A stretch of DNA of 60,649 nucleotides, the filler included. It is 7 parts of 7 records of this genome, joined end to end, with 100 filler letters (N's around TTAATTAATTAA, not from the genome) between each part and the next. Parts side by side here need not be neighbours in the genome. Positions count along the whole stretch, not along the records: positions 5,246 to 16,185 come from DRR723986_17073; 6 more parts are not named here. The stretch is one strand, 5' to 3'. A model generated the notes under the pieces. It did not search any database and was not told the DNA's origin. It worked only from the letters and a program-made list of their open reading frames with translations. This document shows positions 1 to 51,629 of the stretch, piece by piece. Within the stretch, counting starts at the first letter, position 1, and each line of letters opens with the position of its first letter. A program made the translations under genes and the position numbers.

Positions 1-1
1 T

Positions 2-484
2 TGGTACAACCGCGCCGGAGTTGAGCGGGTGATGGGTTTTGCGACCGAGGATCAGGTTGAATCGTTTTTCCGAGATGTGCCGGAATTTGAGCGGATGCTG
101 GTGCGCTCGGGCACGATCGTTCTGAAATACTGGTTCTCGATCACCGACGAAGAGCAGCAGTTGCGATTCCTGATGCGTATTCACGATCCGATGAAGCAGT
201 GGAAGCTGTCGCCGATGGATCTGGAGAGCCGCATTCGCTGGGAGCAGTACACCAAAGCCAAGGAAGAGATGTTCGCACGCACCAACATCCCCGAGGCCCC
301 GTGGTACATTGTCGAAGGTAACGACAAGAAGCGCGAGCGGTTGAATTGCATCGAGCACCTGCTGTCGCAGATTCCGTATGAGGATGTGCCAAGCGAAAAG
401 GTATCGTTGCCCGATCGGAATTATAACCCTGAATACGAACGTCAGGTACTGCCCGATGAGCTGTATGTGCCCAAGATCTATTGA
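2..484 (+). CDS. ppk2: Polyphosphate kinase 2, C-terminal part (5' truncated at window edge)
   Basis: Frame is open from position 2 (WYNRAGVERVMGF). Contains PPK2 motifs KYWFSIT, KQWKLSPMD, W.QYT.AKE.MF and APW..VEGNDKKRERLN. Confidence 0.93.
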   Translation, partial: WYNRAGVERVMGFATEDQVESFFRDVPEFERMLVRSGTIVLKYWFSITDEEQQLRFLMRIHDPMKQWKLSPMDLESRIRWEQYTKAKEEMFARTNIPEAPWYIVEGNDKKRERLNCIEHLLSQIPYEDVPSEKVSLPDRNYNPEYERQVLPDELYVPKIY

Positions 485-993
485 TCTGAGGCGTTGAGCG
501 TTTCTAGGTTTTCAAGGAAGCGGCGCAGGTAGCCGGTAAAGGCTTCGACCTCGGAGGGGTCGAAGCCCTTTAACAAGTGGCGTTGGCGTTCCAGCGCCCG
601 TGCAAGGATACGGGCGTGCAGGTCGTGGCCTGTTGGTGTCAGGGTCCAATCCTTGCGCCGGTCATCTTTCAGCAGCGTTTCGGATGTGACCAGCCCGGCC
701 TTTTCCATCCGTTGCAGGGCGCGGCTGACGGCGGCCTTGTCTATGCCCATGGTTTGGGCCGCGTGCGAGACCGAGCTGCCGGGTTCACGGGTCAGCATCA
801 CCAGCACACGCCAATCCATCACGCCAATCCCGAATTTTTCCAGATAATCCTTGGTCGCGCTGCGGGTGAACCGATTGCCGGCAAAGGTCAGCAGAACCGT
901 GGGCGTGCGGGTAAAGTCGAGCGTAGGTGCCGCGGGGCTGGTGGTGCTGTCGTCGGGATGGATCAGGAACAGGTCATCGGTGAGGTCGGTCAT
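478..993 (-). CDS. MarR-family transcriptional regulator
   Basis: wHTH motifs DWRVLVML, IDKAAVSRAL and DDRR...LTPTG. Start set at ATG 993 (MTDLTDD) because the longer start at 1044 falls inside the operator. Confidence 0.88.
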   Translation of the reverse strand: MTDLTDDLFLIHPDDSTTSPAAPTLDFTRTPTVLLTFAGNRFTRSATKDYLEKFGIGVMDWRVLVMLTREPGSSVSHAAQTMGIDKAAVSRALQRMEKAGLVTSETLLKDDRRKDWTLTPTGHDLHARILARALERQRHLLKGFDPSEVEAFTGYLRRFLENLETLNASDQ

Positions 994-1034
994 GAGGGGC
1001 CTCTGGCGCAGGTTTGGTACAGCGTAGCGGCTAT

Positions 1035-1083
1035 GTGTTGACATGACAACACGGCGTGTGATTACGTGTTGTCATGTCAACAC
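1035..1083. promoter_or_regulatory. Twin palindromic operators between marR and the P450 gene
   Basis: GTGTTGACATGACAACAC (1035-1052) and its exact reverse complement GTGTTGTCATGTCAACAC (1066-1083). Each carries a TTGACA hexamer, on opposite strands. Confidence 0.8.
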
Positions 1084-1098
1084 GTAAGGAGGTGTCAA

Positions 1099-2259
1099 AT
1101 GTCGAATGCCATGGTTTACGAGATCGACCCACAGGTGTTCTGGCGCGATCCCTATCCTGATCTCAAGCGGATGCGGGCGTTGGCGCCGGTGGTGTTTGTG
1201 CCGCAATTGGGGGCGACTTTGATTGTACGGCGGCAGGATATTTTCGAGCAGGAAAAGAAGACCGAGGTGTTCTCATCTGATCAGCCCGGCGGATTGATGA
1301 CCGTGTTGATGGGGCAGAATATGATGCGCAAAGATGGGGCGGATCATCTGTCAGAGCGCAAGGCGATCTTTCCCACGGTGTCGCCCAAGACGGTGCAGCG
1401 GGTGTGGACAGATCAGTTTCGTGCGGCAACTGAACGGGTGCTGGATGGGCTAGAGGCGCAGAGTGGCTGCGATCTGGTGCGGGATTATGCGCTGCCGGTG
1501 TCGGCTGAAGCACTGAAGGCGATGACGGGTCTGACGCAAATGTCGGCAGCAGAAATGGACCGGGTCAGTCAGGGTATGATTGATGGCTGTGCGAATTATG
1601 CGGGTGATCCTGAGGTCGAGGCCCGGTGCCACGATTGCACAGCATCGATTGACCGTCATATCGACGAGATGATCCCGCTGGTGGATGCGTCGCCGGATCA
1701 GTCTCTGTTATCGGTACAGCGGCAGGCAGGCATGGACGATGCGCAGGTGCGAGCGAATATTAAGCTGGCCATTTCCGGCGGTCAGAACGAGCCGCGCGAT
1801 GCGATTGCCGGAACGGTCTGGGCCTTGTTGCAAAATCCGGATCAGTTGGAGCTGGTGCGGGCCGGGCAGGCAACGTGGCGGCAAGCGTTTGAGGAGTACG
1901 CGCGCTGGATGTCCCCGATTGGGATGTCGCCACGCCGGGTGGCACAAGCGTATGAGCTGCATGGGGTGACGTTTGAACCAGAGGAGCGCGTATTTCTGAT
2001 GTTTGGATCAGGCAACCGGGATGAAACGGTGTTTGCGAATCCGGGTGTTTTTGATCTTACACAGGACAGTTCAGCGGCGATTTCGTTTGGGGCGGGGCCG
2101 CATTTCTGTGCAGGGGCATGGGCCGCCAAGGCGTTGATCGGGGATGTGGCGTTGCCGATGTTGTTTGAGCGATTCCCTGATGTGCGGCTGGATGGTGCGG
2201 CTGAATTTGGCGGCTGGGCGTTTCGGGGGCCGTTGCAGATGCCGGTGCGCTGGGATTAA
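1099..2259 (+). CDS. Cytochrome P450
   Basis: Heme motif FGAGPHFCAG, K-helix EEYAR (ExxR), NRD motif. Strong SD AAGGAGGT precedes ATG 1099. Confidence 0.95.
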   Translation: MSNAMVYEIDPQVFWRDPYPDLKRMRALAPVVFVPQLGATLIVRRQDIFEQEKKTEVFSSDQPGGLMTVLMGQNMMRKDGADHLSERKAIFPTVSPKTVQRVWTDQFRAATERVLDGLEAQSGCDLVRDYALPVSAEALKAMTGLTQMSAAEMDRVSQGMIDGCANYAGDPEVEARCHDCTASIDRHIDEMIPLVDASPDQSLLSVQRQAGMDDAQVRANIKLAISGGQNEPRDAIAGTVWALLQNPDQLELVRAGQATWRQAFEEYARWMSPIGMSPRRVAQAYELHGVTFEPEERVFLMFGSGNRDETVFANPGVFDLTQDSSAAISFGAGPHFCAGAWAAKALIGDVALPMLFERFPDVRLDGAAEFGGWAFRGPLQMPVRWD

Positions 2260-2837
2260 TCCGTTGCTGTGTTGAGAAGCACGCGCTGGGCGCAAGTGAT
2301 CAGGTCTGGGCCGGCGGTGCGCGGGTCCTCGGTGCTGCGCCCGGACAGCCATGCGCGGCAATAGATTTGCGCAGGGCCGATCAGTTGCGCGAAAAACATC
2401 GGGCTGGGCATGGGGTGCAACTGGCCTGCTGCGATTAGCGGCGCGCGCCATGTTTCGATGTGCTGGGCCAGTTTGGCATTCTCGACCTCTTGCGCGTCGC
2501 GGATGGTGCTTAGCCACTCGGAGCGCGCGTGTTCAAACAGAAACCGCCCTTGCGCGCCTGAGGTGGCGACCCATTCCAGATGCGCGGTGAGCAGGGTGGC
2601 GATGCCCTCGGCCGCTGTATCAGGCAAGCGGTGCAGCAAGGCGGTGTGATAGCTGTGCAGGCAGGTCAGAAAGAGATCGGCACACAGGGCGTCGCGGTTT
2701 TTGTAGGCGTGAAAGAAGCTGCCGTTTGACACCCCGGCCTGTGCCCGGATTTGGGCCACCGACGTGCCGCTGACCCCGTTTTCATCAAATAACGTCAGGG
2801 CAGTCTGCCGGATGAGGTCCTTGGTCGTGGCGGTCAT
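2256..2837 (-). CDS. TetR/AcrR-family transcriptional regulator
   Basis: N-terminal HTH ALTLFDENG..GTSVAQIRAQAGVSNGSFFHAYKNR. Confidence 0.9.
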   Translation of the reverse strand: MTATTKDLIRQTALTLFDENGVSGTSVAQIRAQAGVSNGSFFHAYKNRDALCADLFLTCLHSYHTALLHRLPDTAAEGIATLLTAHLEWVATSGAQGRFLFEHARSEWLSTIRDAQEVENAKLAQHIETWRAPLIAAGQLHPMPSPMFFAQLIGPAQIYCRAWLSGRSTEDPRTAGPDLITCAQRVLLNTATD

Positions 2838-2862
2838 GGCTAGGCGTCCTGATATTTTGAAT

Positions 2863-2892
2863 TTAGAGTAATGCTCTAGAGTTATTCTCTAA
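2863..2892. promoter_or_regulatory. Overlapping palindromic operators (probable TetR sites)
   Basis: TAGAG-TAATG-CTCTA (2864-2878) overlaps TAGAG-TTATT-CTCTA (2877-2891) in the AT-rich gap between the divergent tetR and amidohydrolase genes. Confidence 0.7.
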
Positions 2893-2925
2893 CATGACAT
2901 ATGCCATCAGGAGCCCGCCGTTACC

Positions 2926-3732
2926 ATGATTATTGATGCTTGGGGTCAGCACCCCACTTTGCGCCATGCCCAAGATCCGATGTTTGACTCGTTGCGCCGT
3001 TGGACCAAAACACCGGCCCCGACCGAAGAGCTGCCGGTATCAACCACGGTGGCGTTGATGGATCAGGCGGGCGTCGACAAGATGTTGATCAGCGCGTGGG
3101 AAGCGCCCCGCAATTCGATGATCTCGAACGATGAGGTTGAGGGGTTTGTCGCCGAGGCGCCGGATCGGTTTGTTGGGGTCGGCTCGGTCGACATTTCCAA
3201 ACCGATGGAAGCGGTGCGCGAGGTGCGGCGCTGTGTGCAAGACCGTGGGTTCAAAGCGATCCGTGTGTTGCCATGGTTATGGGAGGTGCCGCCAACGGAC
3301 CGCCGGTTCTATCCGGTGTTTGCCGCCTGCGTCGAAGAGGGCGTGCCGTTTTGCACGCAGATCGGCCATACCGGCCCGTTGATGCCATCCGAGGTGGGGC
3401 GACCGCTATATCTGGATCAGGTTGCGTTGGATTTCCCTGAACTGGTGATCGTGGGCGGACATATTGGTTATCCGTGGACCGAAGAGGCGGTGGCCGTCGC
3501 GACCAAACACGAGAACGTCTATATCGATACCTCGGCCTATACGGCGGGGCGGTACCCGCCGGAATTGGTCCGGTTCATGCAGGGGCACGGCGCGGCCAAG
3601 GTGCTGTTTGGCACCAATTATCCGATGATGCCACCGGCGCAGGCGTTGAACGGGTTGGACAAGCTTGGCTTGGCCGAGGACAAACAGGCGCTGTTTCTTG
3701 GCGGAAATGCGCAGCGAGTGTTTGGTCTGTAG
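2926..3732 (+). CDS. Amidohydrolase family protein (Amidohydro_2-like)
   Basis: IIDAWGQH N-terminus, GHTG, GHIGYPW, NVYIDTS, KVLFGTNYP, GGNA.RVF. SD AGGAG upstream. Confidence 0.9.
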   Translation: MIIDAWGQHPTLRHAQDPMFDSLRRWTKTPAPTEELPVSTTVALMDQAGVDKMLISAWEAPRNSMISNDEVEGFVAEAPDRFVGVGSVDISKPMEAVREVRRCVQDRGFKAIRVLPWLWEVPPTDRRFYPVFAACVEEGVPFCTQIGHTGPLMPSEVGRPLYLDQVALDFPELVIVGGHIGYPWTEEAVAVATKHENVYIDTSAYTAGRYPPELVRFMQGHGAAKVLFGTNYPMMPPAQALNGLDKLGLAEDKQALFLGGNAQRVFGL

Positions 3733-3746
3733 CAATCGGGTGAGAG

Positions 3747-3770
3747 GCCAAGCGCGAGGGCGCGCTTGGC
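3747..3770. terminator. GC-rich hairpin between convergent genes
   Basis: GCCAAGCGCG-AGGG-CGCGCTTGGC, a perfect 10-bp stem. No clear U tract. Confidence 0.55.
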
Positions 3771-3796
3771 TGGTGGTGTCTGAGTGGTGTTGCGGC

Positions 3797-4708
3797 TTAG
3801 AAACAGAACGCGTCGAACCCAGTGTCTTGGAGGGGTTGGCAAATGAACACGTCGTCCAGTGCGGCGGTGTCGACCCATTCGGTTGGGGTCGTGGGGGCCG
3901 TATCCAGTGGCCCACGGGCATTTTGAAAGAAGACGGCGAAATCAGCGGGGGACGACCATGGATTGGTGTTTTGATCCGTCGTGACAGTGCTGGCCCAGTC
4001 AAAGGTGAATTGTTCGTCCTCCCAACAGGTAAAGATGTCTTGAATGCTAGGGCCCGTGCTTGGGTCTGTCGTTGGGGTCTCTTCGGGTGTTGGATCTGGT
4101 TCTGGTGTTGTTGTGTCCTCGGGCGGTTGGGGGGCGACGACAGGTGTGACGGCAGGTGTTTCCGGAGGCGTGGTATCGGGCGTTTCCGGCGGAGTGGAGT
4201 TGTCGGTTGTTTCAGGCGGCTCGGTTGGGGCGGTTGGCGGTGTCGCGCCTTGATCCAATTGCAGGGGCGCGCTGGTGCGGGCAAAGTTTTGCGTGACCAT
4301 CACCGCCTCGTACCCTTGGTAATCGCCGGTTTCGATGCCGATCCCAATCACGGTGACATCAGGGTTGAGGATATTGGCCCGGTGGCCGGGGCTGTCCATC
4401 AAACTGTTGTGCAGGTCGATCACGTCGTCTTGGAGGCCCGGCGCGCCGCGTTCGCTTTGCCATGCGATGTTTTCGGCCCAAGTTGCGTTGCCCGAAAACT
4501 CAAACTGGGCTTGTTCCATCCGCTCGCCGGCGGACGATCCGTTTTCACCGGTGTGAGAGAATACATCCTGTTGCAGCATCCATTGGCTGTGATCCTCGGA
4601 GGCGTCGTTCAATCGCAGTTCCAATTGGACCGGTTCGAGCCCCCGGGATGTGCGTTCATTGTTAATCAATTCAAGCATTTGTTGTTCGAGTGTGCTGGCT
4701 TGTGACAT
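3797..4708 (-). CDS. CAP (SCP/Tpx-1/Ag5/PR-1) domain protein with Pro/Thr/Glu-rich linker
   Basis: EQQMLELINNER..GL, HSQWM, FSHTG, AENIA, SPGHRANIL, IGIGI, TQNFA. SD AGGAG before ATG 4708. Confidence 0.9.
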   Translation of the reverse strand: MSQASTLEQQMLELINNERTSRGLEPVQLELRLNDASEDHSQWMLQQDVFSHTGENGSSAGERMEQAQFEFSGNATWAENIAWQSERGAPGLQDDVIDLHNSLMDSPGHRANILNPDVTVIGIGIETGDYQGYEAVMVTQNFARTSAPLQLDQGATPPTAPTEPPETTDNSTPPETPDTTPPETPAVTPVVAPQPPEDTTTPEPDPTPEETPTTDPSTGPSIQDIFTCWEDEQFTFDWASTVTTDQNTNPWSSPADFAVFFQNARGPLDTAPTTPTEWVDTAALDDVFICQPLQDTGFDAFCF

Positions 4709-4977
4709 CTGCGTCTCCTGTATGATGAGCGGTCGGAAAATTCCGTTCGTTCGGCATAGAGGGGGCGGGGGGACAACGAGAATAGCGCGCAAACTTAGGC
4801 GTGTATTCGGGCAGGCCCTCGCCTGTTGGTTGCGTTTACGTAAGCGGGAATCAGTATGGGAAAACGGCGAACCTGCCACGTGGCTGGAAAGAGCCGAGCG
4901 GCAATGGGCAAATCAGCAAGATTTGTCCGTTTGGCGATGTCAGGAGGGGGAGTTGGGGAATCGGGAGACCCCAGAAA

Positions 4978-5012
4978 CGACAAACCCCCGCGGCTGGGCC
5001 TCGGGGGTCGTC
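4978..5012 (-). terminator. Probable intrinsic terminator of rpsU
   Basis: Minus strand GACGACCCCCGAGGCCCAGCCGCGGGGGTTTGTCGT forms a hairpin about 30 nt after the rpsU stop. Confidence 0.55.
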
Positions 5013-5042
5013 AAATAGCGTCTGAAAACAGCTACGGTGTGC

Positions 5043-5144
5043 TTAGAGCATACCTTCGCGCTGTGCTTTCTTACGTGCCAGTTTACGGGCACGACGGATC
5101 GCCTCAGCTTTCTCACGCGCTTTTTTCTCGGACGGCTTCTCGAA
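5043..5144 (-). CDS. rpsU: 30S ribosomal protein S21, C-terminal part (not in the ORF track)
   Basis: Manual translation gives [33 protein letters not shown], the alphaproteobacterial S21 C-terminus. Cut by the spacer. Confidence 0.93.
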
Positions 5145-5145
5145 A

Positions 5146-5245
5146 NNNNNNNNNNNNNNNNNNNNNNNNNNNNNNNNNNNNNNNNNNNNTTAATTAATTA
5201 ANNNNNNNNNNNNNNNNNNNNNNNNNNNNNNNNNNNNNNNNNNNN
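5146..5245. other. Artificial contig spacer
   Basis: N44-TTAATTAATTAA-N44, stops in all six frames. Confidence 0.99.
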
Positions 5246-5273
5246 CAACAACAACAACAACAACGCCAACAAC
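5246..5273 (+). repeat. (AAC)n microsatellite, poly-Asn, at the contig start
   Basis: caacaacaacaacaacaacgccaacaac. Confidence 0.85.
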
Positions 5274-8200
5274 GTCGTGTTCGAGGGCCAGCTCGTGGTC
5301 TCGCCCAACGTGGCCCACGCCGCGAACACGGTCGTGGTGTCGGCGGCGTCGTCCGCCGTGGCCGGCACCAACGTGGTGTTCTCGGTCACGCCGCGCGACG
5401 CGTACAAGAACGTGGTGCCGTCGGACAGCAACAGCGTCGTGCTGGGGGCCACGCTGTCGGCCGGCGGCGTCTCGTCGCTGTCGCCGCTGGCGGACGGGGG
5501 CGTGGCCGTGGCCGCGGGCGCGGGCGCGGGCTTCGCCGTGACGTTCCGCCCCACGCTGGTGGGCTCGTACGCGCTGGCGCTGTCGGTCAACGGCGACGAC
5601 GTGGCGTGGGCCGCCACCGAGAGCGCCACCACCCCCACCGTCGACGTCACCTTTGCCGCCGCCAGCGCCGCCGTGTCGGTGCTGACCCTGGAGACCGCCG
5701 CCGCGTTCGCCGGCGACGACGGCCTGGTGGCGATCGAGGCCAAGGACAGCTTCGGCAACGCCGTGCTCGGCACGGACGAGGAGTTTGTGGTGACGCTCGT
5801 CGAGGCCAGCGGCGCCGAGGTCCCCCTCGCCCTGGCGGCGCCCGCGGGCAGCGGGTCGCGCTACACGTTCGCGTTCGTGCCCACGGTGTCGGGCGAGCAC
5901 TCGGTGCGCGCCTCGCTCGGCGGCGCCGCGGTGGGCGGCAGCCCCGTGACGTCGTCGTGCACCGCCGGCCCCGCCGTCCACGCCGCCTCGGTGTTCACCG
6001 GGGAGGGGCTCGCGGCCGCCGTCGCCGGCGCCCAGGCCACCTTCCAGCTGCTCGTCAACGACGCCTACGGCAACGCGCGCTCGCACGTGGTGGACACGGT
6101 GGCGGCGCGCGCGGTGGGGCCGTCGGCCTCGTACGATGCCGCCGTCACGTCGCTGGGCGCCGGGCTGTACTCGCTGGCCTGGAGCCCCACCGTGGCCAAC
6201 GCCGAGTACGCCTGGACCATCACCGTGGGCGAGGGCGAGGACGCCGTGGCGTTCGGCGGCGACCGCGTGGCGTGGGTGTCGCCCGGGCCCCTCTCGGTCC
6301 CCGACTGCCTGCTCGACGCCTCGCACCCGGGCACCGTGGTCGCCGGCGACACCATGTCGTTTGTCGTCTCCACGCACGACCAGTACGGCAACCGTATCTT
6401 CGAGTCGCGCGGCGAGAGCTTCTCGGTGAGCATCGCCCTGGACGGCGGCGCCCCCTCCTCCTCCGCGTCGGCGTCGCCGGTGGTGGCCGAGTTTGACGAC
6501 CAGCAGGACGGCACGTACGTGGCCACCAGCGTGGTCACCCTCGCCGCCCAGCACGTGGTGTCGGTGACGGCAACATCGTCGGCGCAACACGTGGGCGGGT
6601 CGCCGTTTGGCCTCCTGGTCACCCCCAACGTGCCCCACAGCCTGCACACGGTGGTGGACGCCGCGGCGGCGACCGTGGTGGCGGGCGAGGCGCAGCAGTT
6701 TAGCGTGCTGCCGTTCGACGTGTACGGCAACGACGCGTCGTCCACGAGCGTCGACGCCCAGGTGGCGGCCGTGCTGGCCACCACGGCCCAAGCCCAAGCC
6801 CAAGCCCAAGCGGCGGCGGTGGTGGTGCCGACAATGACGCGCGATGAGGGGACGGGCGCGTTCGTGGGCACTTACGAGGCCACGGTGGCCGGCTCGTACT
6901 CGCTGCAGGTCACGGTGGACGGCGCGGTGCTGGCGCAGGCCGCCCAGGGCGTGGAGGTGGTGCCCGCCGAGGCGCACGCGGCCACCAGCTCGGCCGAGGG
7001 CGCGGGCCTGGAGACCGCCGTCGCCGGCGAGGGCGCGTCCTTCCGCGTCACGCTGTTCGACCGCTTCTCGAACCTCATCCCCTCGCCGCAGGCCGCCGAC
7101 GTGGCGGTGACGGTGGCGAAGGTGCCGCTGCCGTCCCCGGCCGTGGCCGCGCCCACGGTGGAGGCGGCGGCGGACGGGGCGTCGGCGCTGGACGTGGCGT
7201 ACAACCCCTTCATCATCGGCGACTACCGCCTGGTGGTGCTCGTGCGCGGCGACGAGCTGGTGAACACGACGGTGACGGTGCTGGCGGCCGGCACGCACCT
7301 GCCCAACTGCAACGTGCTGGGCTCGGGCTACTACGCCGCGTCGTCGATCGCCGGCCAGACCCTCACCTTCTCCATCGCCACGTTCGACCAGTACGGCAAC
7401 GAGCGCAGCACGGGCGGCGACGCGTTCGCGGTGACCGTGGCGTCCAAGGACGACGGCGGCGCCACCGTCGTGCCCGCGACCGTGCTGGACCTGGCCACGG
7501 GCGTGTACCGCGTGTCCTTCACCCCGACGCGCGCCACCAACTACTCGGTGAGCGTCGAGCTGGACGGCGAGACGCTCCACGACGCCAAGGGCGAGGCCGC
7601 CGGCGCGGCGACCGTCCGCCCCGCCGCCACGGACATCCAGCGCAGCGTGCTGCGCGGCCCGGGCGCGCGCGGCGCCGTGGCCGGCGACGCTGCCAGCTTC
7701 GTGGTGGTGGCCAAGGACCGCTTCGACAACCTCCGCCTGGTGGGCGGCGACGCGCTGTTCGCCGTGCTGACGGGCCCCGACACGCTGGTGGTGGCGGCCA
7801 CGGACGTGACCGACCACGGCGACGGCAACTACACGCTGCCCTACACGGCCGTCGTGTCGGGCGTGTACTCGGTGCAGCTGTACCTGGGCCGCAACCTCAA
7901 GACCCCGCAGCCCTCCATCGTGGTCGCGGTGGGCGGTATGGAGCCGACCATGACGCTGGCGTCGGGCAGCGGGCTCAAGGGCTCGGTCGCCGGCGTGGAG
8001 GCCGTGGTCTCCCTGCAGGCGCGCGACGCGGGCGGCAACCTGCTGGGCGCCGGCGGGGACACGTTCTCCGCGTCGCTCGTCGACCCCAGCGACGACAACG
8101 CCGTGGTGGCCACGGCCGTGGTGACGGACAACGAGGACGGCACGTACGCCCTGCGCTACACCACCACGGCCGCGGGCGACTTCCTGCTGGTCGTCAAGGG

Positions 8201-11200
8201 CGCGTCGGCGACCGCGGCGGCGGCGGGCGAGGCCGAGCAGAACATCCTCGGCGGCGGCGACGACCAGGGCGCGGGCTTTGGCGTCACCATCCTGCCCGCC
8301 CAGCTGGACGGCTCCAGCAGCCAGTGGACGCTGGGGTCGACGGCCGTGGGCGCGGGCGAGCTGGGCTTTGGCAGCGTCACCGGCTTTGACGCGTACGGCA
8401 ACGCCCAGGTGGAGGGCGGCGACCTGTTCGTCGTCACCGCCGTGTGCGTCAGCGGGTGCGCCGGCGACGACAAGGGCAACAAGGACGGCCACCACGACCT
8501 GGGCTTCCAGTTTGTCGCGCAAGAGGACGAGGACGACGGCCAGTACCTGCTGGGCTTCGAGTTCACGCAGGCCGGCCGCTTCCAGGTGTGCGCGTCGGTG
8601 GTGGGCAAGCGCGGCGACGGGGCCGAGTACGACGAGGCGGTGGGCGAGTGCGTGGAGATCTTTGTGCTGCCCGGCCCCGCGCACGCCGACAACTGCTTGG
8701 TGGCCCTGCCCAGCGCCTCGCTGCGCGCGGGCTCGGCCGGCAGCGTGGAGGTGACGGCGTACGACCGCTACGGCAACCTGCGCGTGGCGCCCGAGGGCTA
8801 CGAGGGCGACGCCTTTGACCGCACCAGCGAGAACTTTATCGTGTTTGTGCGCGACACGGTCGGCTACTTTGGCTACACCACCGAGTCGCAGGCGCGCGAG
8901 GGCGCCACGTACGCGCTGCAGTTCACGCCGTACGGCGCGTCGCCCGCGTACTCTGTGGACGTGTACCTGGGCGGCGACCGCGTGCCCGGGGCGTGGACCG
9001 TGGAGGTGCTGCCCGCCGTGCTGTCCGCCGCCAACTCGCGCGTGGTGTCCCCCGACGGGTACCAGGCCGTGGCCGGCGAGCCGTTTGCGGTGCACCTGGT
9101 GCCGTACGACGCCTACAACAACCGCATCGCCGCCGCCGAGGGCGACCTGGCCGCCGACGGCGCCACCCCCGTGGTCGACCTCGTGGGCCTGCGCGTGGCC
9201 ACGGCGTTCGAGAGCGGCGACGCGCCGTACGTGCCCCTGACGCCCGTGGTCTCGCTGGGCAGCGCGGACGACGCCGACTACGTCGTCACGTTCGCCCAGC
9301 CCATCGCCGGCGTGTACATTTTGCAGTGCACGTACGACGACGCCGAGGTGCTGGGCAGCCCCGTGGCGCTGGCCGTGGCCCCCGCCGCCGCCTCGGCCGA
9401 CAACTCGTACGTCGTCAGCGACGAGCTGCGCGTGGGCACCGTCAGCGACGCCGCCGGCGGCGAGGTGTACAGCGTCAACGGCACGCTGACGTTCAGCGTG
9501 CAGGCCGTGGACCGCTTCGGCAACCTGCTGACCCAGGCCGGGCCCTCCACCCTGTTTGGCGCCACCGTCTCCGCCGACGGCACGTCTTCTTCTTCGTCGT
9601 CGTGGTTTGCGGCCGCGGACGCCGGCAAGGGCCTGTTCTCGATCGAGGTGGCGCTGGGCACGGTGGCCGGCGACGTGGTGGTCAGCGTGCAGCTGCAGCC
9701 CGAGCCCTCGGCGCAGGCGTCCGGCGTCGCCAACTCGCTGGTGCACGAGGAGACCGTGGCCGTGGCGCCCGGCGAGGTGAACGCCGCCCAGTCGGTGCTC
9801 TCGTGCCCCCTGCAGGAGGTCACGGCGGGCGACGCGTTCGCGGCCGCCATCGCGGCCAAGGACTCGTGGGGCAACAGCCTGCAGGAGGGCGGCGAGCCCT
9901 TTGTGTGCACCAGCTCGCGCGACGCGGTGATGGGCGTTGTGGCGGACAACGCCGACGGCACGTACGACGTGGCCTACTCGTTCACCGTCGCCGGCGCCGC
10001 GTCGGTGGCGTGCTCGCTGGGCGAGGCGGGCGAGGCGGGCGAGGTGGGGACGTGCGCGCTGACGGTGGTGCCCAGCGTGCCGTCGGCCGCCAACTCGCTC
10101 GTGCGCGGCGACCCCGCCGAGCTGCTGGCCGGCGAGTCGCAGGTGCGCGAGATCGAGGCCCGCGACCGCTTCGACAACGTCGTGTCCACCGCCGTGCCCG
10201 GCTTCTCCTTTATGGTGGACCTGCTGCGCACCGTGGTCGCGCCCAGCAGCACCAACGGCGGTGGCGTGACCACCACGCAGGAGCTCGCCAGCAAGGCGCG
10301 CGCAATGTTCAACCCCGCCACGGGCTTCTACGAGTTCAGCGTGGGCAACACGGTGGCGGCGCAGTACACGGCGGTGGGGCAGCTCAACGGGGCGACCATC
10401 GGCACGCAGCTGTCGGTGCGGGTGTTCCCGGCGGCCCTGTCCCCGGCCATGTCGGTGGCGTCCGACTGGGACTTTGGCACGTACGCGTGGGCCGCGCTGG
10501 GCCGCACCTTCAGCCTCCTGCTGCGCGACGCGTACGGCAACGTGCTGCTGGGCGACGCCGGCCTGGACGCCTACGCCCTGCAGCTGCAGGTGGAGGTGGA
10601 CGGCGCCGCGCGCGAGAGCGAGCACGGCACGTTCCTGGACTTCCGCAACGGCACCGTGCAGGCCAACATCAACACCACGGTCTCGGGCCACTACTCGGTG
10701 CGCGTGCTGGCGCAGGGCCAGGAGCTCCAGAACTCGCCGCTGCAGTGGGAGACGGTCCCGCGCGCCCTGTTCTTCACGTTCACGCAGGCGCACTGGGAGC
10801 ACGTGTCGGCCACGCTGCAGGAGACGCAGCCGCTGCGCTTCAACCTCACGGCGTTCGACCAGTTCGGCAACGCCATCGGCACGCACATGGACTACACGCG
10901 CATGATCGACATCAAGGTGGACGGGCCGTTCGTGTCGGCGGCGGCCGCCGGCTCGGGCGCGCACGTGTGCCCGTCGGTGGGCGGCGGCTGCCCCGACCTC
11001 GTGGTGGACTACGACCACGACCCGTCGCTGAGCTTCGACATGGCCACGGGCGAGTACCTGCTGGGCTGGCACCCCGTGGTGGAGGGCGTGTACCGCACGT
11101 ACGTCACCGTGCTGGGCTACCCCGTGCAGGGCAGCCCGTACGACTTTGAGGTGCAGCCCTTCGTGTGCCCGGACCAGGGCGTGCGCTGCTCGGACGGCAC

Positions 11201-14200
11201 GTGCGCCGCCGCCTACGCCCAGTGCCCCGGCGCCGACGCCCACTGCACCGAGCCCGGCACCGTGCTGTGCGCCACCACGGGCGAGTGCGCCCCGGCCGCG
11301 CAGTGCCCGTGCGAGGAGGGCCACACGCGGTGCGCCCTCACCGGCGCCTGCGTCGCGTCGGCGTCCGAGTGCCCCGCGGCCGCGGCCCCGTGCGACTCGT
11401 CGTCGTCGTCGTCGTCGTCGTTGACCGTGCAGTGCTGGGACGGCACGTGCGCCGCCGCCGAGGCCGACTGCCCCGCCCGCCCCGTCTGCCCTCCCGGCCA
11501 CACGCTGTGCCCGGACATGGTGTCGTGCGTGGTGGACGCGGGCGCCTGCCCGCGGGCCTCGCACCCGGACGCCCTCGTGGCGTGCCCGTCGTCCGCGCCC
11601 GTGCGCTGCGCCGACCTGACGTGCGCCGTGTCGCTGCGCGGCTGCCCGACCCTGACCTCGTGCCCCGACGGCGGGCTCGTGTGCCCGGACGGAAGCTGCG
11701 CGTCGACGCAGAGCGAGTGCGCCGTGCCGTCGCTGTGCGAGGGCGCGCTTTCCGTGCGCTGCCCCGACGGGTCGTGCCGCGCGGCGCTGGCCGACTGCCC
11801 CACCCAGCTGTCGTGCCCGCCCGCCCTGCCCGTGCGCTGCGCGGACCTGGCGTGCGTCGCGTCCGTGTCCGAGTGCGCCTCGGCTCCTGCGGCGACGGCG
11901 GCGGCGGCGACGGCGTTCGAGGCGTGCGGCTCGGCGGACATGTTCCGCTGCCCCGACGGGTCGTGCGCGCGCAACGTGCTGTTCTGCGCGACGCGCACCA
12001 CGTGCCCCGCGTCGTCGCCGGTGCTGTGCCCCGACGGGTCGTGCCGGGCCAACGCGCTGGAGTGCATGGCGGGCGTGACGCTGTCGGCGTCGGGCGCGCT
12101 GACCACCCAGTGCCCGGCCGGCTACACGCGGTGCCCGGGCGGCGCGTGCGTCGCGGCGTCCGAGGACGGCACGGTGGCGTGCCCGTCCGGGGTGGTGTGC
12201 CCGGCGACGCACCCCGTCAAGTGCCCCGACAACCAGTGCGTGGCCAGCGCGGACAAGTGCGCGGCCACCCCCAAGTGCCCGGCCGCGGCGCCGCTGCGCT
12301 GCCGCGACGGCACGTGCGTGAGCTCGCTGGACGCGTGCCCGACCACCATCACCTGCCCCGCGGAGGCGCCCGTGCTGTGCCCGGACCTCGTGTGCCAGCC
12401 CCTGGCGTCGATGTGCGCGGACCCGGACGCCAACGCCTGCGCGGACGGGCTGGCGCGCTGCCCGGGCGGCGAGTGCGTGTCGGCGCTCGCGCTGTGCCCG
12501 CAGGCCATCACGTGCCCGGCCGGCACCGTGCGGTGCTGGGACAAGAGCTGCGCGGCGTCGCTGGCCGTGTGCCCCGTGCGCGAGGTGTCGGTGCCGTGCC
12601 CCGCGAACGTGCCGGTGCGGTGTGCCGACAGCAGCTGCCGCGAGCGCCACGAGGACTGCCCCACGGCCAACCTGTGCCCCGCCGAGCTGCCCGTCAAGTG
12701 CCACGACCGCACGTGCGCGGCCACGGTGGAGCAGTGCCCGCAGTGGGACGCCGAGTCGTCGGTGTGCACGTCGGGCTTCAGCATGTGCCCCAGCGGCCTG
12801 TGCTCGCTGTCCGAGTGCGGCACGCCCGTGACGTGCCCGGCGACCACGCCCTTCAAGTGCCTGGACGAGACGTGCCGCGCCCACCCCGACGACTGCCCGC
12901 CGCAGCCCGTGTGCCCGCCGCAGCTGCCGTTCCTGTGCACCAACGGCCTGTGCGCGCCGTCGCGCATGGCCTGCCGCCGCATCGAGGGCTGCGCCGAGCC
13001 GTCCACGCCCGTCAAGTGCCCCAGCGGCGAGTGCGTGGCCCACGCCGAGCAGTGCTCGGCCGCGGCCAACCCGCCCGGCATGTGCCCGCCCGAGAACCCC
13101 GTGCGCTGCCACGACGGCAACTGCGCCCACGAGCGCTGGCGGTGCGCCCAGTTCCTGTGCCCGGCCGGCTACCACCGCTGCTCGGACGGCTCGTGCGTCG
13201 CGTTCGAGGGCGACTGCGAGCTCCCCGACGAGTGCCCCTACGACGACACGCGCATCACCTGCCACGACGGCTCGTGCGGCGTGGACAACCCCTACTCGAC
13301 GCGCGCGTGCCTGCCCAGCATCAACCTGTGCCCGGCGTCCATGCCCGAGCTGTGCGCCAACGGCAAGTGCGTGGGCGCGCCGCAGGACTGCCCGGACCTG
13401 GACACGGGCTGCCTCGAGTACGAGTCCAAGTGCTTTGACGGGTCGTGCGCCGCCGAGTGCCCCGACCCCTCCACCGACGACGAGTGCGTGGGCGCCAACG
13501 AGGAGCGGTGCGCCGACGGGTCGTGCCGTCGCCTGGGGTCGTGCTCGCTGCTGGCCAACGGCTGCGACGGGGACGTGCCCTACCGCTGCGCCAACGGCCG
13601 CTGCGTGGACAGCTGGGACGACTGCCCCCCCACCAGCTTCTGCCCCGAGATGGCCTACCCCTGCGAGGGCGACGTGTGCCTCGCCGCCGCCGTCAAGTGC
13701 CCCGACGGCACGTGCGCCGCCAGCCTGCTGCACTGCCCGCAGCCCACGTCGCTGACCGCCCCCGACTTTTGCCTCACCGCCACCCCCATCCGGTGCGCCG
13801 ACGGCACGTGCGTGGCCGCCGCCGACGAGTGCACGGCGCTGGCGACGTGCGGCCTGGTGGCGACCGACGCCGGCGGCGTGCGCTTCCAGGTGCGCTGCCC
13901 CGACGGCACGTGCCAGGACGACGCCATCAAGTGCCCCACCGCCAACACCTGCCCCTCGGAGTTCCCCGTGCGCTGCTTCAACGGCGCGTGCGCCGCCGAC
14001 GAGGGCGACTGCATGTGCACCGACGCCGACTACGAGTGCGTGGCCCTCCAGGAGGACGGGTCGGAGCGCGTGGGCCCCAACGGCTGCCGCCTGTCCGCCC
14101 CCTACCGCTGCCTGGACGGCTCGTGCATGGCCTCGGGCGACGAGTGCCCCTCGTCCGCCGGTGCCGGTGCCGGCCAGAAGAGCGCCGTGGCCCACGCCAA

Positions 14201-16185
14201 GCGCGCGTCGCTCAAGGCGCTGGTGACCAGCACGCACGCGGCCAACGGGTGCCCCGCGGCGCAGCCCAACAAGTGCTGGGACGGGTCGTGCGTGGCGGCC
14301 ACCCCGCAGTGCCCCTCCACCAACGGCTGCCCCGGCGCCCTGCCCTACCGCTGCGCCGACGGCCAGTGCATGCTGTCGCCCGCGGCGTGCTCGGCCTCCA
14401 CCGAGTGCGCCGTGGACGGCCACGTGCGGTGCGCCGTGGACGGGTCGTGCGCTGCCTCCAAGCTCGACTGCCCGGCCGCCAACAACTGCCCCCTGTCGTC
14501 GCCCGTGCGCTGCGCCAACGGCGAGTGCGTGCGCTCGGGCGCGGCGTGCGACCCCGTCAGCGCGTGCCCGGCCCAGTCCCCCCACCGCTGCGCGTCCGGC
14601 CTGTGCGCCGCGTCGCTCGCCCTGTGCCCGGGCCTGCAGGTGTGCTCCGACGGCATGGTCATGTGCCCGCAGGACATGGTGTGCCGCGAGAGCGAGGACG
14701 CGTGCGAGGCCGCCCTGGTGATGGGCAGCGGCGGCGCGGCCGCCTGCCCGTTGGTGGCCCCCCTGCGCTGCCCCACCGGCGAGTGCGTGCCCTCGGGCGC
14801 GGACTGCCCCATCGCCACGGCGTCGTGCCCCGACGGCGAGTTCCTGTGCGCGGACGGCGCGTGCGCCACCACCAGCGCCGAGTGCTGGCAGCGCCTGGGA
14901 CGCTGCGGCTCCGGCTCCGGCTCCGGCTCGGACTCGGACCCCAGCGCGTGCTCGTGCGCGGTGGAGGGCGAGGCGCTGTGCTTTGACGGCCGGTGCCAGG
15001 AGCAGTGCGACGACCCCTTGCCGGCGTGCGGCGGCGCCAAGCCCTTCCGGTGCGACGACATGTCGTGCGCTGCCGACGCCGCGGCGTGCGAGGGCCGCAC
15101 GGCCGAGTGGGTCCCCTCGTCGGCGACCTCGTTCCTCGGCTGCACGGTGGGCGAGCGCCTGTGCTCGGACGGCTGCCGCGTGGGCGACGACTGCGCGGAC
15201 GCGCCCGCGGGGTGCTCGCCCTCGCTGGCCTACACGCTCAAGCCCATGGCCATGGAGCTGACGGTCAACCCGCTGGAGACCGCGTCGACGCCGCTCAAGA
15301 CCAGCGGCGGGGCGTACGTGGGCGAGGTCAAGATCAGCCCCGGGTCGCTCGCGTCGTACGAGGACCCCACGCGCCCCTTGACCCTTCGCCTGGCCCACGT
15401 CGCCGACTCGGACGTCCGCGAGTCGCGCTACTCGACCGGCGACCCCGAGCCCACCGTGCTCGGCCTCCGCGACGTGGTGTCGTCGCCCGTGGTGTCGCTG
15501 CAGGTCGTGGACGCCGGCCAGTCGGGCTTCACCCAGGTGCTGCGCAGCCCCATCGTGGTCGACCTCGCCTTCCGCACCGTGTGCCACAACGTGCCGGAGG
15601 AGGAGGAGGACGGCGGCGACGCCAAGGAGGCCGCCGCCAAGGCGCACGACCCCGCCTCCACCGACACCGAGCTGTGCCTTGCCGTGTTGGACGAGGCCAC
15701 GGGCGAGTGGGAGTGCCGCTCGTCCAGCGTGGTGGAGCTGCGGTCGGGCGTGTACCGCACGCAGATCTCGCAGCTGTCGTCCGGCAGCAACAAGATGGCG
15801 GTTTTGCAGAAGCCCAAGGACAAGCAGGCAACCAACTCGGGGTCGGGCGGCACGGGCAGCTCGGGCGGCAGCGGCGACAGCACCCAGGTGGACGGCGGCG
15901 CCGTGTCCGGCGGCGTGCTGGCCAGCGCCTTTGTGCTGTTCGGCGGCGGGTACGCCGTGTGGCGCCTGCACCGCTACAAGGTCAAGTACAGGGCGTGGAA
16001 GGCCGAGAGGCGCGACCAGGAGGAGATGGTGGACATGGGCGACCAGCTCGAGGGCAAGGCCCAGCTGGTGGTCAACCCCATGTTCCTGGCCCAGCAGCAG
16101 ATCCTGCAGAAGCGCATTGCCGACGTCGAGGGCGAGATGCACCACCAACCTCACGACCACGGCGAGGGCGAGGGCGAGGGCGAGG
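5247..16185 (+). CDS. Giant single-pass surface protein: filamin-type Ig repeats, Cys-rich repeats, GPS-like domain, TM (partial at both ends; probably eukaryotic)
   Basis: No stop over the whole contig. Extreme G/C bias at third codon positions. About 17 D-x-[YF]-G-N repeats with DGTY motifs, then CP..P.RC.DG[ST]C repeats, then hydrophobic GGVLASAFVLFGGGYAVW followed by basic RLHRYKVKYR. Confidence 0.85.
11160..15225 (+). repeat. Coding tandem array of Cys-rich modules of about 25 aa
   Basis: Recurrent DNA motif tgccccgacgg(g/c)(t/a)cgtgc. Protein consensus is roughly CP-x2-3-P-[VY]-RC-x-DG-[ST]-C-x5-6-CP. Confidence 0.85.
16161..16185 (+). repeat. (GGCGAG)n hexamer repeat, (GE)n, at the contig end
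   Basis: ggcgagggcgagggcgagggcgagg. Confidence 0.85.
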
Positions 16186-16285
16186 NNNNNNNNNNNNNNN
16201 NNNNNNNNNNNNNNNNNNNNNNNNNNNNNTTAATTAATTAANNNNNNNNNNNNNNNNNNNNNNNNNNNNNNNNNNNNNNNNNNNN
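16186..16285. other. Artificial contig spacer
   Basis: N44-TTAATTAATTAA-N44. Confidence 0.99.
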
Positions 16286-20517: not shown

Positions 20518-21138
20518 TCACTGTGCCTTGATCGCGGCGCGCGCCTCGCCCTGCCACTGGCGCTTCCAGGCGAAGACCTCTTCCCGACGCTCCCAGTCGT
20601 AGCGCGGGTCGTCCATCACGCCCACGTAATACAGCCGCCCCTGCCCCTGCCGCCACGGATCGAGCACGAGGCCCTGCTCCATCGGCGCACCCTTGGCGCT
20701 CAGGATCAGGGTGGAATGCTCCAGTCGCACGTTGCGGGCATTGGCGATGGCGCGATGCAGGTCGATGGTCTGAAAGCGCTGCGCCTTCATGTGCATCTCG
20801 AGATCGTCGGCCCAGTCCTTGCAGAGCCCGCGCGGGCGCATGCCGTTGTTCACCTTGGTGTTGTGGATCAGCGGCGGGTCCACGACCTGCCACTCAACCG
20901 CCCATTTCAGCGGCTCCAGCACCGCGATCCGCGCCGCGCGGTCCGCCTCTTCCGGGGACACCCCCGGCCCAAGCGCCAGCAGCCGCTGCGTCAGATCGGC
21001 GATCTTGGCCTCTTCGGCGCTGCGCCCCTCGGCAAAGGCCATGACGGCGCGCGACTGCGCCATCTCGTCCTTGGGCATGGTGCAGCCCGCCACGAGGGCG
21101 CTGCCCGCAAGCAGCCCGCAAAACCGTCTTCTGTTCAT
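20518..21138 (-). CDS. Putative lipoprotein of unknown function
   Basis: MNRRRFCGLLAGSALVAGC has a twin-Arg-like signal and a lipobox (LVAG-C). Codon usage matches neighbouring genes. Confidence 0.75.
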   Translation of the reverse strand: MNRRRFCGLLAGSALVAGCTMPKDEMAQSRAVMAFAEGRSAEEAKIADLTQRLLALGPGVSPEEADRAARIAVLEPLKWAVEWQVVDPPLIHNTKVNNGMRPRGLCKDWADDLEMHMKAQRFQTIDLHRAIANARNVRLEHSTLILSAKGAPMEQGLVLDPWRQGQGRLYYVGVMDDPRYDWERREEVFAWKRQWQGEARAAIKAQ

Positions 21139-21166
21139 CGCTACGCGCCCCCGTGGCCCCTTGGAA

Positions 21167-22582: not shown

Positions 22583-22605
22583 GGGTGCCTCTCAGGTTAT
22601 CTTTA

Positions 22606-24894: not shown

Positions 24895-24989
24895 CTCTCA
24901 CCATGATGTGCTGCTCGTTGGCAGCGACCGCCTTATGCTGTGGCCTTCTCCTGCCCTTGGGGCAACGGGGTCACAGTCCTGTGGTCTTT

Positions 24990-26051: not shown

Positions 26052-26151
26052 NNNNNNNNNNNNNNNNNNNNNNNNNNNNNNNNNNNNNNNNNNNNTTAAT
26101 TAATTAANNNNNNNNNNNNNNNNNNNNNNNNNNNNNNNNNNNNNNNNNNNN
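26052..26151. other. Artificial contig spacer
   Basis: N44-TTAATTAATTAA-N44. Confidence 0.99.
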
Positions 26152-32170: not shown

Positions 32171-32270
32171 NNNNNNNNNNNNNNNNNNNNNNNNNNNNNN
32201 NNNNNNNNNNNNNNTTAATTAATTAANNNNNNNNNNNNNNNNNNNNNNNNNNNNNNNNNNNNNNNNNNNN
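32171..32270. other. Artificial contig spacer
   Basis: N44-TTAATTAATTAA-N44. Confidence 0.99.
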
Positions 32271-37624: not shown

Positions 37625-37724
37625 NNNNNNNNNNNNNNNNNNNNNNNNNNNNNNNNNNNNNNNNNNNNTTAATTAATTAANNNNNNNNNNNNNNNNNNNN
37701 NNNNNNNNNNNNNNNNNNNNNNNN
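37625..37724. other. Artificial contig spacer
   Basis: N44-TTAATTAATTAA-N44. Confidence 0.99.
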
Positions 37725-48255: not shown

Positions 48256-48289
48256 AATGAATACTCCACTAACGCTAACTCAAAACGGG

Positions 48290-51529: not shown

Positions 51530-51629
51530 NNNNNNNNNNNNNNNNNNNNNNNNNNNNNNNNNNNNNNNNNNNNTTAATTAATTAANNNNNNNNNNNNNNN
51601 NNNNNNNNNNNNNNNNNNNNNNNNNNNNN
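51530..51629. other. Artificial contig spacer
   Basis: N44-TTAATTAATTAA-N44. Confidence 0.99.

Follow-up and report, generated by a model that had tools for sequence, protein, structure and literature searches.

What kind of protein is encoded by a reading frame that runs without a stop through an entire contig, in a set of contigs of which all the others bear bacterial genes? This question is raised by the contig at positions 5246–16185, bounded by N-spacers, of the 60,649-nucleotide stretch of DNA analyzed here (positions 1–60649, referred to below as the window). An initial annotation, made from the sequence alone, had proposed a giant receptor- or adhesin-like protein of a high-GC (guanine plus cytosine) protist, with filamin-type Ig repeats, a Cys-rich array, a GPS-like domain, one transmembrane (TM) helix and a short tail. 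On our best reading, the contig holds an internal fragment of the gene of a giant single-pass type I surface receptor, which belongs to a widespread and undescribed family of protist proteins. The members of this family share the type I layout and the order of domains, and they are spread over several eukaryotic lineages. As to its function, we propose, with a probability of about 0.6, that the protein is an adhesion or particle-binding receptor, analogous to the Sib proteins of Dictyostelium and to integrin beta chains. The roles put forward in the initial annotation, adhesion, prey capture or mechanosensing, are likewise proposals.

The reading frame and its family

The frame (cf. Table 1) comprises 3,646 codons on the plus strand with zero stops, where about 53 would be expected from the base composition, in agreement with the earlier claim of more than 3,640 stop-free codons over the whole contig. 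The GC content is 73–75% in this contig and 49–69% in its neighbors. By codon position it amounts to 67% (GC1), 56.4% (GC2) and 98.1% (GC3), and it is the difference between GC3 and GC2 that fixes the coding frame. A or T stands at the third position in only 68 of the 3,646 codons, and this bias is even along the whole frame. TTA, CTA and TCA, which read as stops on the opposite strand, are absent from the frame; because of their absence and the GC3 of 98%, an antisense frame of 3,656 codons is open as well. The latter was rejected as a gene, as its translation is rich in Arg, Ala, Gly and His and its openness is due to codon bias, and further open reading frames (ORFs) of 414–757 amino acids (aa) in the other frames of the contig have the same cause. 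The gene is cut at both ends, probably by assembly breaks at simple repeats.

A word-index search with the whole query returned 17 proteins at E ≤ 1e-3, the best of which cover 62–75% of it at 26–29% identity. When the membrane-proximal domain, TM helix and tail alone were used, the same index gave no match at E ≤ 1e-3. We take this miss to reflect a limit of the index, since a full HMMER scan of the C-terminal 747 aa (aa 2900–3646) against 1.84 billion cluster representatives recovered the family: of 352 representatives at E ≤ 1e-3, 117 reach E ≤ 1e-30, and many are 3,000–5,500 aa long. Named members come from Paulinella chromatophora, Blastocystis sp., Rhodelphis marinus and Rhodelphis limneticus, and the others from MMETSP and EukProt transcriptomes and from metagenomes, so that the family is present in Rhizaria, in stramenopiles and in the predatory lineage that is sister to red algae. 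A tree built from 71 C-terminal regions places the query together with the fragments P0023 and P0024 (43% and 41% identity, respectively) on a branch of their own; the tree mixes many lineages, and many copies are found per data set.

Ten relatives were examined over their full length, and from these a shared plan was derived. It consists of a signal-peptide-like start (judged by eye), a variable head, filamin-type Ig repeats, a Cys array, a membrane-proximal domain and one TM helix, followed by a tail with the motif R-x-x-R-Y-R-x-K-Y, an NP motif and a long helical stretch, which in many relatives carries a basic cluster three residues from its end. With signal-peptide-like starts in the relatives, the rod and the Cys array in front of the single TM helix and the conserved tail behind it, the type I topology of the initial annotation stands, and the domain order that it had proposed to seek in EukProt and MMETSP was found there in full-length relatives. 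A protist origin with high GC content agrees with the relatives in Paulinella, Rhodelphis and Blastocystis and with the GC3 of 98%. The family had been taken as not characterized, and its members are indeed named just "hypothetical" or "fibro-slime domain-containing". The architecture had also been called unfamiliar, which is right insofar as a full-text search of the literature, in which few subscription journals were covered and which is therefore no proof of absence, gave no description of it; it is, however, not unique to this contig, as the 352 cluster representatives attest.

The initial annotation had further asked whether the Ig and Cys halves might have been joined by chimeric assembly. 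A single BLASTP high-scoring segment pair (HSP) aligns query aa 372–3632 with aa 755–3793 of the 3,845-aa R. marinus protein P0030, and HSPs cross the Ig/Cys junction in five of six full-length relatives, while the alignment with the Paulinella protein begins just after it. A chimeric assembly was thus rejected on the strength of single HSPs that bridge the junction. The nearest bacterial genome among those compared, G001, with 21% of sampled words shared, has no match to the contig at either the protein or the DNA level. The contig is a fragment of a eukaryotic gene.

Head, transmembrane helix and tail

The heads of the relatives were surveyed by local iterated searches over a set of 171 proteins. 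An L-type lectin domain was found in 51 of them, a fibro-slime domain in 33, a Sib-N-like domain in 22 and an integrin-beta VWA domain in one (P0030). Relative P0004 carries Ig_SIBA-E_2nd and Lectin_legB besides SIBA-E_N, as well as a Fibro_Slime domain (61.3 bits), and lectin domains are present in P0008 and P0013. In P0030, the Pfam Integrin_beta VWA match (71.4 bits, E 1.3e-19) covers profile positions 6–239 of 248 and includes a D-L-S-G-S motif, whose position we take to be that of the MIDAS (metal-ion-dependent adhesion site) motif; the same protein also has an L-type lectin domain.

The TM helix of the query is moderately hydrophobic (1.61 over 19 residues, the third highest value in the protein). 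An AlphaFold model of aa 3300–3646 (347 aa), built with 20 sequences (alignment A1), shows a continuous helix through it (model residues 251–299), and the relatives have a clearly hydrophobic TM segment at the aligned position, so that the TM helix that had been predicted near 15909–15963 is confirmed. The basic stop-transfer patch that had been noted behind it was also found, with nine basic residues in a 17-residue stretch. In alignment A1, residues R274, R277, Y278 and K281 (model numbering) are invariant, and N311 is nearly so. A TM helix together with the R-x-x-R-Y-[RK] motif was recognized in 71 of 165 proteins, many of the others being assumed to be fragments. An NP motif lies 30–50 aa into the tail in 63 of the 69 tails that are at least 60 aa long, and its form NPMF is common to the query and its nearest relatives. 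The tail of the query is cut after 74 aa; the long tails of its relatives are helical.

Taken together, these features suggest how such a receptor might work. The head, which in relatives is a lectin, fibro-slime, Sib-N-like or VWA domain, would bind a glycan or a matrix or particle ligand far from the cell, and the Ig rod and the disulfide stalk would form a long spacer that holds it away from the membrane. Inside the cell, the NPxF motif and the helix of the tail might dock cytoplasmic adaptors, and the protein as a whole would work in adhesion or particle capture, as Sib proteins and integrin beta chains do.

Two further observations concern the tails of relatives. Many of these (e.g., P0004, P0005, P0006, P0008, P0029, P0037) end in a cluster of Lys or Arg followed by three residues, the last of which is often Leu, Met, Phe or Ile, a spacing that is not that of a canonical KKXX signal; the cluster could be a sorting or docking signal, and the query is cut before this point. 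In addition, the start of the P0030 tail, R-L-Q-R-Y-R-R-K-L-H-D-K-R, recalls the membrane-proximal motif H-D-R-K-E of integrin beta, as given in the accessible part of one report (10.1101/2020.04.29.069435), and K-L-H-[DEA]-K-R is also found in P0004, P0032 and P0042.

Membrane-proximal domain, stalk, rod and the remainder of the window

The beta-rich juxtamembrane domain of the initial annotation appears in the AlphaFold model as a sandwich of 13 strands, with a pLDDT (predicted local distance difference test) score of 85–95 over most of residues 30–230. A Foldseek search of the PDB with this model gave matches with E values from 4e-4 to 3e-2 and a TM-score of about 0.3, normalized to the whole 347-aa query. 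These comprise ZU5 domains (ankyrin 4d8o, the best match at E 4.2e-4, UNC5b and NLRP1, with a probability around 1.0) and GAIN domains (E 8e-4 to 3e-2; CELSR1 at E 8.1e-4, CD97, BAI2, BAI3, latrophilin and GPR110, with probabilities of 0.91–1.00), and the two folds match equally well. The ZU5 domains of ankyrin, UNC5 and the NLRP1 FIIND are cytoplasmic. The query differs from these in giving no Pfam ZU5 match and in having no UPA domain after the sandwich.

The resemblance to GAIN domains is the starting point of a first alternative, in which the protein would be a mechanosensor of the adhesion G-protein-coupled receptor (GPCR) or polycystin type. Its GAIN-like domain would cleave itself at the GPS-like turn, and force on the long ectodomain would shed it, the last strand then being laid bare as a signal. 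The available part of the description of GAIN subdomain B (PMC3321182) gives it as a twisted 13-strand sandwich adjoining the membrane, which agrees with the number and the place of the strands modeled in the query. Like the GAIN/GPS region of adhesion GPCRs and polycystin-1, the query also has a C...W-x-C motif and an L-S turn before the last strand. Two conserved disulfides and canonical Trp residues mark the GAIN/GPS region; in alignment A1, C178 and C191 are invariant and W189 is nearly so, and the pattern C-[LMIV]-[AGS]...W-x-C occurs in 54 of the 72 members with a recognizable TM helix; many relatives have a third Cys 3–9 aa before the last strand, which the query lacks. Directly before that strand, the query reads S-Q-L-S, R. 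limneticus S-D-L-S and P0030 T-H-L-S, the last being a canonical GPS site. Protein-atlas searches also led to GPS clusters, at 0.83 and 0.80, which is under the 0.9 level that counts.

Against such a mechanosensor stands, first, that no Pfam GPS, GAIN or ZU5 match was obtained, whether for the query (E ≤ 1), for its membrane-proximal piece and the C-terminal 330 aa of P0030 (E ≤ 10) or for the 20 sequences of alignment A1 (E ≤ 0.1), and that the ZU5 structures match as well as the GAIN ones. Furthermore, the six-helix subdomain A of GAIN is absent, since the Cys array reaches up to the sandwich and the model has no long helices before residue 250; the query family seems to conserve one disulfide-type Cys pair, not two; and the sandwich is followed by a single TM helix, not by a bundle of 7 or 11. 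Finally, a GPS is cleaved between an aliphatic residue and Thr, Ser or Cys, usually in H-L-T/S, whereas the query has no His at P2 of the would-be site (Q-L-S), and H-[LFIMV]-[STC] occurs in two of 54 members, correctly placed in P0030 only. We consider this alternative unlikely. The GPS-like domain of the initial annotation holds as a resemblance of the predicted fold with a degenerate motif; it did not hold at the level of a profile match or of the H-L-S/T site, and in the query protein the domain is probably not self-cleaving. Judged by the distance from an I-P-x-G-A-type motif to the tail motif, the membrane-proximal domain falls into two size classes among the relatives, a short one of about 180–250 aa (210 aa in the query) and a long one of about 330–400 aa (P0005, P0006, P0011), which has an insertion with extra Cys.

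Next to this domain lies the stalk, for which about 1,350 aa of Cys-rich repeats after the Ig part had been claimed; we found 191 Cys in the 1,350 aa of this region, with gaps cycling 7-4-6-5, and C-x-D-G-x-C in 20 of its approximately 47 units. Pfam gave nothing for aa 1951–3646 at E ≤ 1 apart from one chance-level line at 0.27, and when the PDB was searched by sequence, neither the Cys array nor the piece from the membrane-proximal region to the tail gave anything meaningful (best E 1.7). An AlphaFold model of aa 3000–3330, built with a 26-sequence alignment, has a mean pLDDT of 73, rising to about 80–90 in regular units, and depicts each unit as a short hairpin with a single helical turn after it. 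The best PDB targets found with this model by Foldseek are all arrays of LDLa modules, namely those of LRP2, LDLR and VLDLR. Of 20 relatives, 3 show a weak match to the Pfam family Ldl_recept_a (PF00057), the best at E 0.0087; the query shows none at E ≤ 1. In a comparison by hhalign, the family profile was aligned with the LDLa run of the perlecan-like protein P0171 at Prob 98.5 and E 2.8e-15, scores of a kind that Cys-rich repeats push up, and x-C-x-D-G-x-C-V-x5-C was paired with the first hairpin of each LDLa module.

An LDLa module is defined by six Cys in about 40 aa together with an acidic calcium-binding cluster. The hairpin x-C-x-[DN]-G-x-C-[VI]-x5-C is common to the units of the query and to the modules of LDLR, LRP2 and perlecan; in contrast to the latter, a unit of the query has only 26 aa and four Cys, and nothing like the acidic calcium cage D-x-S-D-E was seen by eye in the aligned units. 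To judge from these sequence patterns, we read the four-Cys unit as either a shortened relative of the first half of the LDLa module or a convergent look-alike. In 68 full-length members (3,033–5,490 aa), the interquartile range is 1,188–1,275 aa for the span of the array and 202–215 for the total number of Cys, and many Cys columns are invariant over the 26 aligned sequences. So conserved a size is more in keeping with a structural stalk of constant length than with a ligand-binding array that is free to expand.

These results bear on a second alternative, a receptor of the LDLR/LRP type that takes up cargo by endocytosis or acts as a scavenger, in which the Cys units would bind ligands and the NPxF motif would be an internalization signal. 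FxNPxY is the internalization signal of LDLR, and the tail of the query has NPMF; the hhalign and Foldseek matches to LDLa runs and the weak Ldl_recept_a matches in relatives point the same way. However, the units lack the acidic cage by which LDLa modules bind ligands and have 4 Cys in 26 aa rather than 6 in about 40, their fixed number across the family suits a stalk, and Pfam scans of the query revealed neither a YWTD propeller nor an EGF module. An endocytic role of this type is, in our view, rather improbable.

The rod consists of 17 repeats. D-x-[YFWG]-x-N motifs occur 17 times at a spacing of 101–134 aa, compared with a mean of 0.19 and a maximum of 2 in 500 shuffles, so that the 17 repeats of the D-x-[YF]-G-N type counted in the initial annotation are confirmed. 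A self-built hidden Markov model (HMM) also finds 17 domains, plus one weak partial match (aa 1930–1955), a count that is self-consistent but not independent; independent support for the Ig repeats is provided by the Pfam matches to Filamin (PF00630; 281.5 bits, E 3.2e-85, gathering score 26.9), present in all five query pieces that span aa 1–2000, and to Ig_GEX2_N (139.6 bits, E 4.8e-41, gathering score 27). The Ig_GEX2_N matches overlap the same stretches as the stronger Filamin ones, and a weak match to Invasin_D3 was also obtained. Filamin proper is a cytoplasmic actin cross-linker with an N-terminal actin-binding calponin-homology domain. It was ruled out as an identity for the query, because neither the query fragment nor the Pfam-scanned relatives have a calponin-homology domain, and the relatives have signal peptides and an Ig rod in front of the TM helix. 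The placement of filamin repeats outside the cell in the initial annotation is supported, but such a setting is not without precedent, since Pfam already has Ig_GEX2_N. Among the distant matches, P0015, P0018 and P0020 (5,249–6,175 aa) are giants rich in filamin repeats, whose precomputed annotation includes a REJ domain (PF02010) and which have no four-Cys units; they form a separate family, in which filamin-type Ig rods are paired with a polycystin-type module.

The Ig_GEX2_N match suggests a third alternative, a protein for gamete recognition or attachment like plant GEX2 or Chlamydomonas FUS1. GEX2 and FUS1 have a single-pass build with an Ig array, and in the portion of the literature available to us they are described as gamete attachment or adhesion proteins. 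Filamin-type Ig domains on the outer side of a protein that crosses the membrane once are common to the query and these two; the query is, however, much larger, and its Cys array, GAIN-like domain and tail motif are not described for GEX2 or FUS1 in the texts at hand. The coincidence of the Ig_GEX2_N matches with better Filamin ones, the lectin or VWA heads of the relatives, the many copies per data set and the mixing of lineages in the tree likewise speak against a gamete protein, which we regard as quite improbable.

The seven contigs of the window range from 49% to 75% in GC content. All but the contig studied here bear bacterial genes (TrkH/TrkA, DbpA, ribosomal protein S1, IF-2 and a LuxR/MalT-type regulator), and the window gives the impression of a mixed bin in which a single contig is eukaryotic. 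That the frame might not be a single real gene at all, being a bacterial adhesin or a chimera in which an Ig half was joined to a Cys half, is scarcely credible: the bacterial genes of the other contigs, the presence of filamin and Big-type Ig domains also in bacteria and one distant match named "YVTN family beta-propeller protein" would favor it, but the same domain order recurs in independent eukaryotic transcriptomes and genomes, single HSPs cross the junction, G001 gave no match and the codon bias is even. Elsewhere in the window, the contig at 16286–26051 (68% GC) has long overlapping ORFs at 20789–22813 (+), 21167–22582 (−), 22585–24906 (+) and 22606–24894 (−), two of which have no Pfam match at 1e-5, and a 979-aa ORF at 48113–51052 (+), in a contig with bacterial genes, has none at this level either. 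The stretch 1–5145 has a strongly positive GC skew, which in its first 4 kb amounts to +0.17 to +0.18, and the ORF at 1066–2259 gives a partial cytochrome P450 match (34.6 bits) with the last quarter of the profile only.

Table 1. Coordinates of the features in the window (aa numbers refer to the translated open frame).
Feature	Position	Strand	Remarks
Single open frame	5247–16184	+	3,646 codons; internal fragment of a larger gene, cut at both ends
Asn run (AAC repeat)	5247–5273	+	At contig start
17 filamin/GEX2-type Ig repeats	5289–10988	+	aa 15–1914; Pfam matches, motifs, self-built HMM
Tail of repeat 17 with insertion, and link to Cys array	10989–11165	+	aa 1915–1973
About 47 units of the 26-aa four-Cys repeat C-x7-C-x4-C-x6-C-x5	11166–15215	+	aa 1974–3323
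Beta-sandwich, 13 strands, GAIN-subdomain-B/ZU5-like	15231–15818	+	aa 3329–3524; AlphaFold, Foldseek (predicted)
C-L-A-x9-W-x-C motif, GPS-like	15675–15716	+	Cys pair invariant and Trp nearly invariant in family alignment
S-Q-L-S-S turn and last beta strand	15768–15812	+	
Gly/Ser-rich low-confidence linker to membrane	15813–15899	+	
Gly-rich TM helix	15900–15962	+	aa 3552–3572
Basic juxtamembrane motif R-L-x-R-Y-[KR]-x-K-Y	15963–16013	+	Cytoplasmic side
NPMF, NPxY/F-type motif	16074–16085	+	37 aa after tail start
Predicted cytoplasmic helix	16086–16145	+	Relatives extend here as a long coiled-coil-like tail
Gly-Glu repeat	16161–16184	+	At contig end; C-terminus missing
Antisense open frame	5190–16160	−	3,656 codons; not a gene; by-product of codon bias
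N-spacers	5146–5245, 16186–16285, 26052–26151, 32171–32270, 37625–37724, 51530–51629		N runs around TTAATTAATTAA linker

Standing of the adhesion reading and comparison with known systems

Several findings weigh against reading the protein as an adhesion receptor of the Sib and integrin-beta kind: (i) the N-terminal head of the query lies outside the contig, so the ligand-binding part is seen in relatives alone; (ii) SIBA-E_N in P0004 is barely over the cutoff (29.1 versus 28.1 bits), and the integrin-beta head occurs in just one of 171 proteins; (iii) residue 4 of the NP motif in the 63 tails is Val in 28, Phe in 9, Ala in 8, Tyr in 7 and His in 5, and with Val so frequent and Phe or Tyr in just 16, a reading as an NPxY/F motif of the type bound by phosphotyrosine-binding (PTB) domains fails family-wide; (iv) no EGF-type Pfam match was found in the query, and the units of the stalk are not integrin I-EGF repeats; (v) the Foldseek probability for the Cys array is at most 0.23, with a TM-score of about 0.1, which is not convincing alone; and (vi) the membrane-proximal domain is not the integrin beta-tail domain.

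A bolder proposal goes further and takes the family as the protist counterpart, outside animals, fungi and amoebae, of the integrin-beta and Sib receptors, with an integrin-beta-type or lectin head joined to the cytoskeleton through an NPxF tail and with a true, mostly inactivated GAIN domain near the membrane. We hold it tentatively and think it more apt to fail than to stand. If true, integrin-like adhesion, LDLa-type modules and the autoproteolytic GAIN/GPS fold of adhesion GPCRs and polycystins, which have hitherto been considered separately, would be linked on one ancient eukaryotic receptor, of which Rhodelphis would keep the integrin-beta head and the H-L-S site together; our literature search found no paper that pairs Rhodelphis with integrin. 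We know of no adhesion receptors for most protist lineages, and the family is a concrete candidate for how protists grip prey, a substrate or their own coverings. As far as the available part of one report goes, integrin machinery has been reported only for the relatives of animals and for amoebae (10.1101/2020.04.29.069435). The family also brings a four-Cys module for which neither a Pfam model nor a PDB sequence match was found, and a GAIN/ZU5 fold in a single-pass setting. The contig adds one incomplete member to it, and the value lies in the family rather than in the contig. A giant modular adhesion receptor is a known kind of protein, while the combination found here is undescribed, as are two of the modules in it.

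Among the known systems, integrin beta chains are characterized, in the part of the same report at our disposal (10.1101/2020.04.29.069435), by a VWA (beta-I) head with a metal-ion site, a basic membrane-proximal stretch and an NPxY/F motif. The family resembles them, as far as that text describes them, in the succession of head, Cys-rich stalk, single TM helix and short tail with a basic stretch and NPxY/F. The query itself has the Cys array, the Gly-rich TM helix and NPMF, and its relative P0030 the Integrin_beta VWA head with D-L-S-G-S. It differs from integrin beta in its 17 inserted Ig domains, in its LDLa-like stalk of about 1,350 aa and in having no known alpha partner, and searches did not detect I-EGF, PSI, hybrid or beta-tail domains. 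The Sib proteins (SibA–E) share with the query the type I build, the Gly-rich single TM helix and an NPxY/F-type motif in the tail, and with its relatives the SIBA-E_N and Ig_SIBA-E_2nd domains, found at the N-terminus of P0004, and the Sib-N-like domain of the 22 proteins mentioned above. In the accessible portions of two papers (PMC9197732, PMC12686525), SibA is described as a type I protein that has a VWA domain, a TM helix rich in Gly and talin-binding NPXY motifs that carry force. Compared on the basis of these descriptions, the differences lie in the VWA domain of the Sib proteins, the head of the query itself being off the contig, and in the filamin Ig rod, the four-Cys array and the GAIN-like domain, which are not mentioned there. 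A possible further counterpart, which would fit the adhesion reading, is the Acanthamoeba castellanii protein L8HDD6 (ACA1_149410), which, according to the part of its report that was available (PMC10880599), combines a signal peptide and a legume lectin domain with filamin repeats and a TM helix at the C-terminal end, was recovered by its affinity for beta-1,3-glucan and is induced by laminarin and curdlan. By this description, its head-and-rod layout is like that of relatives P0005 and P0011.

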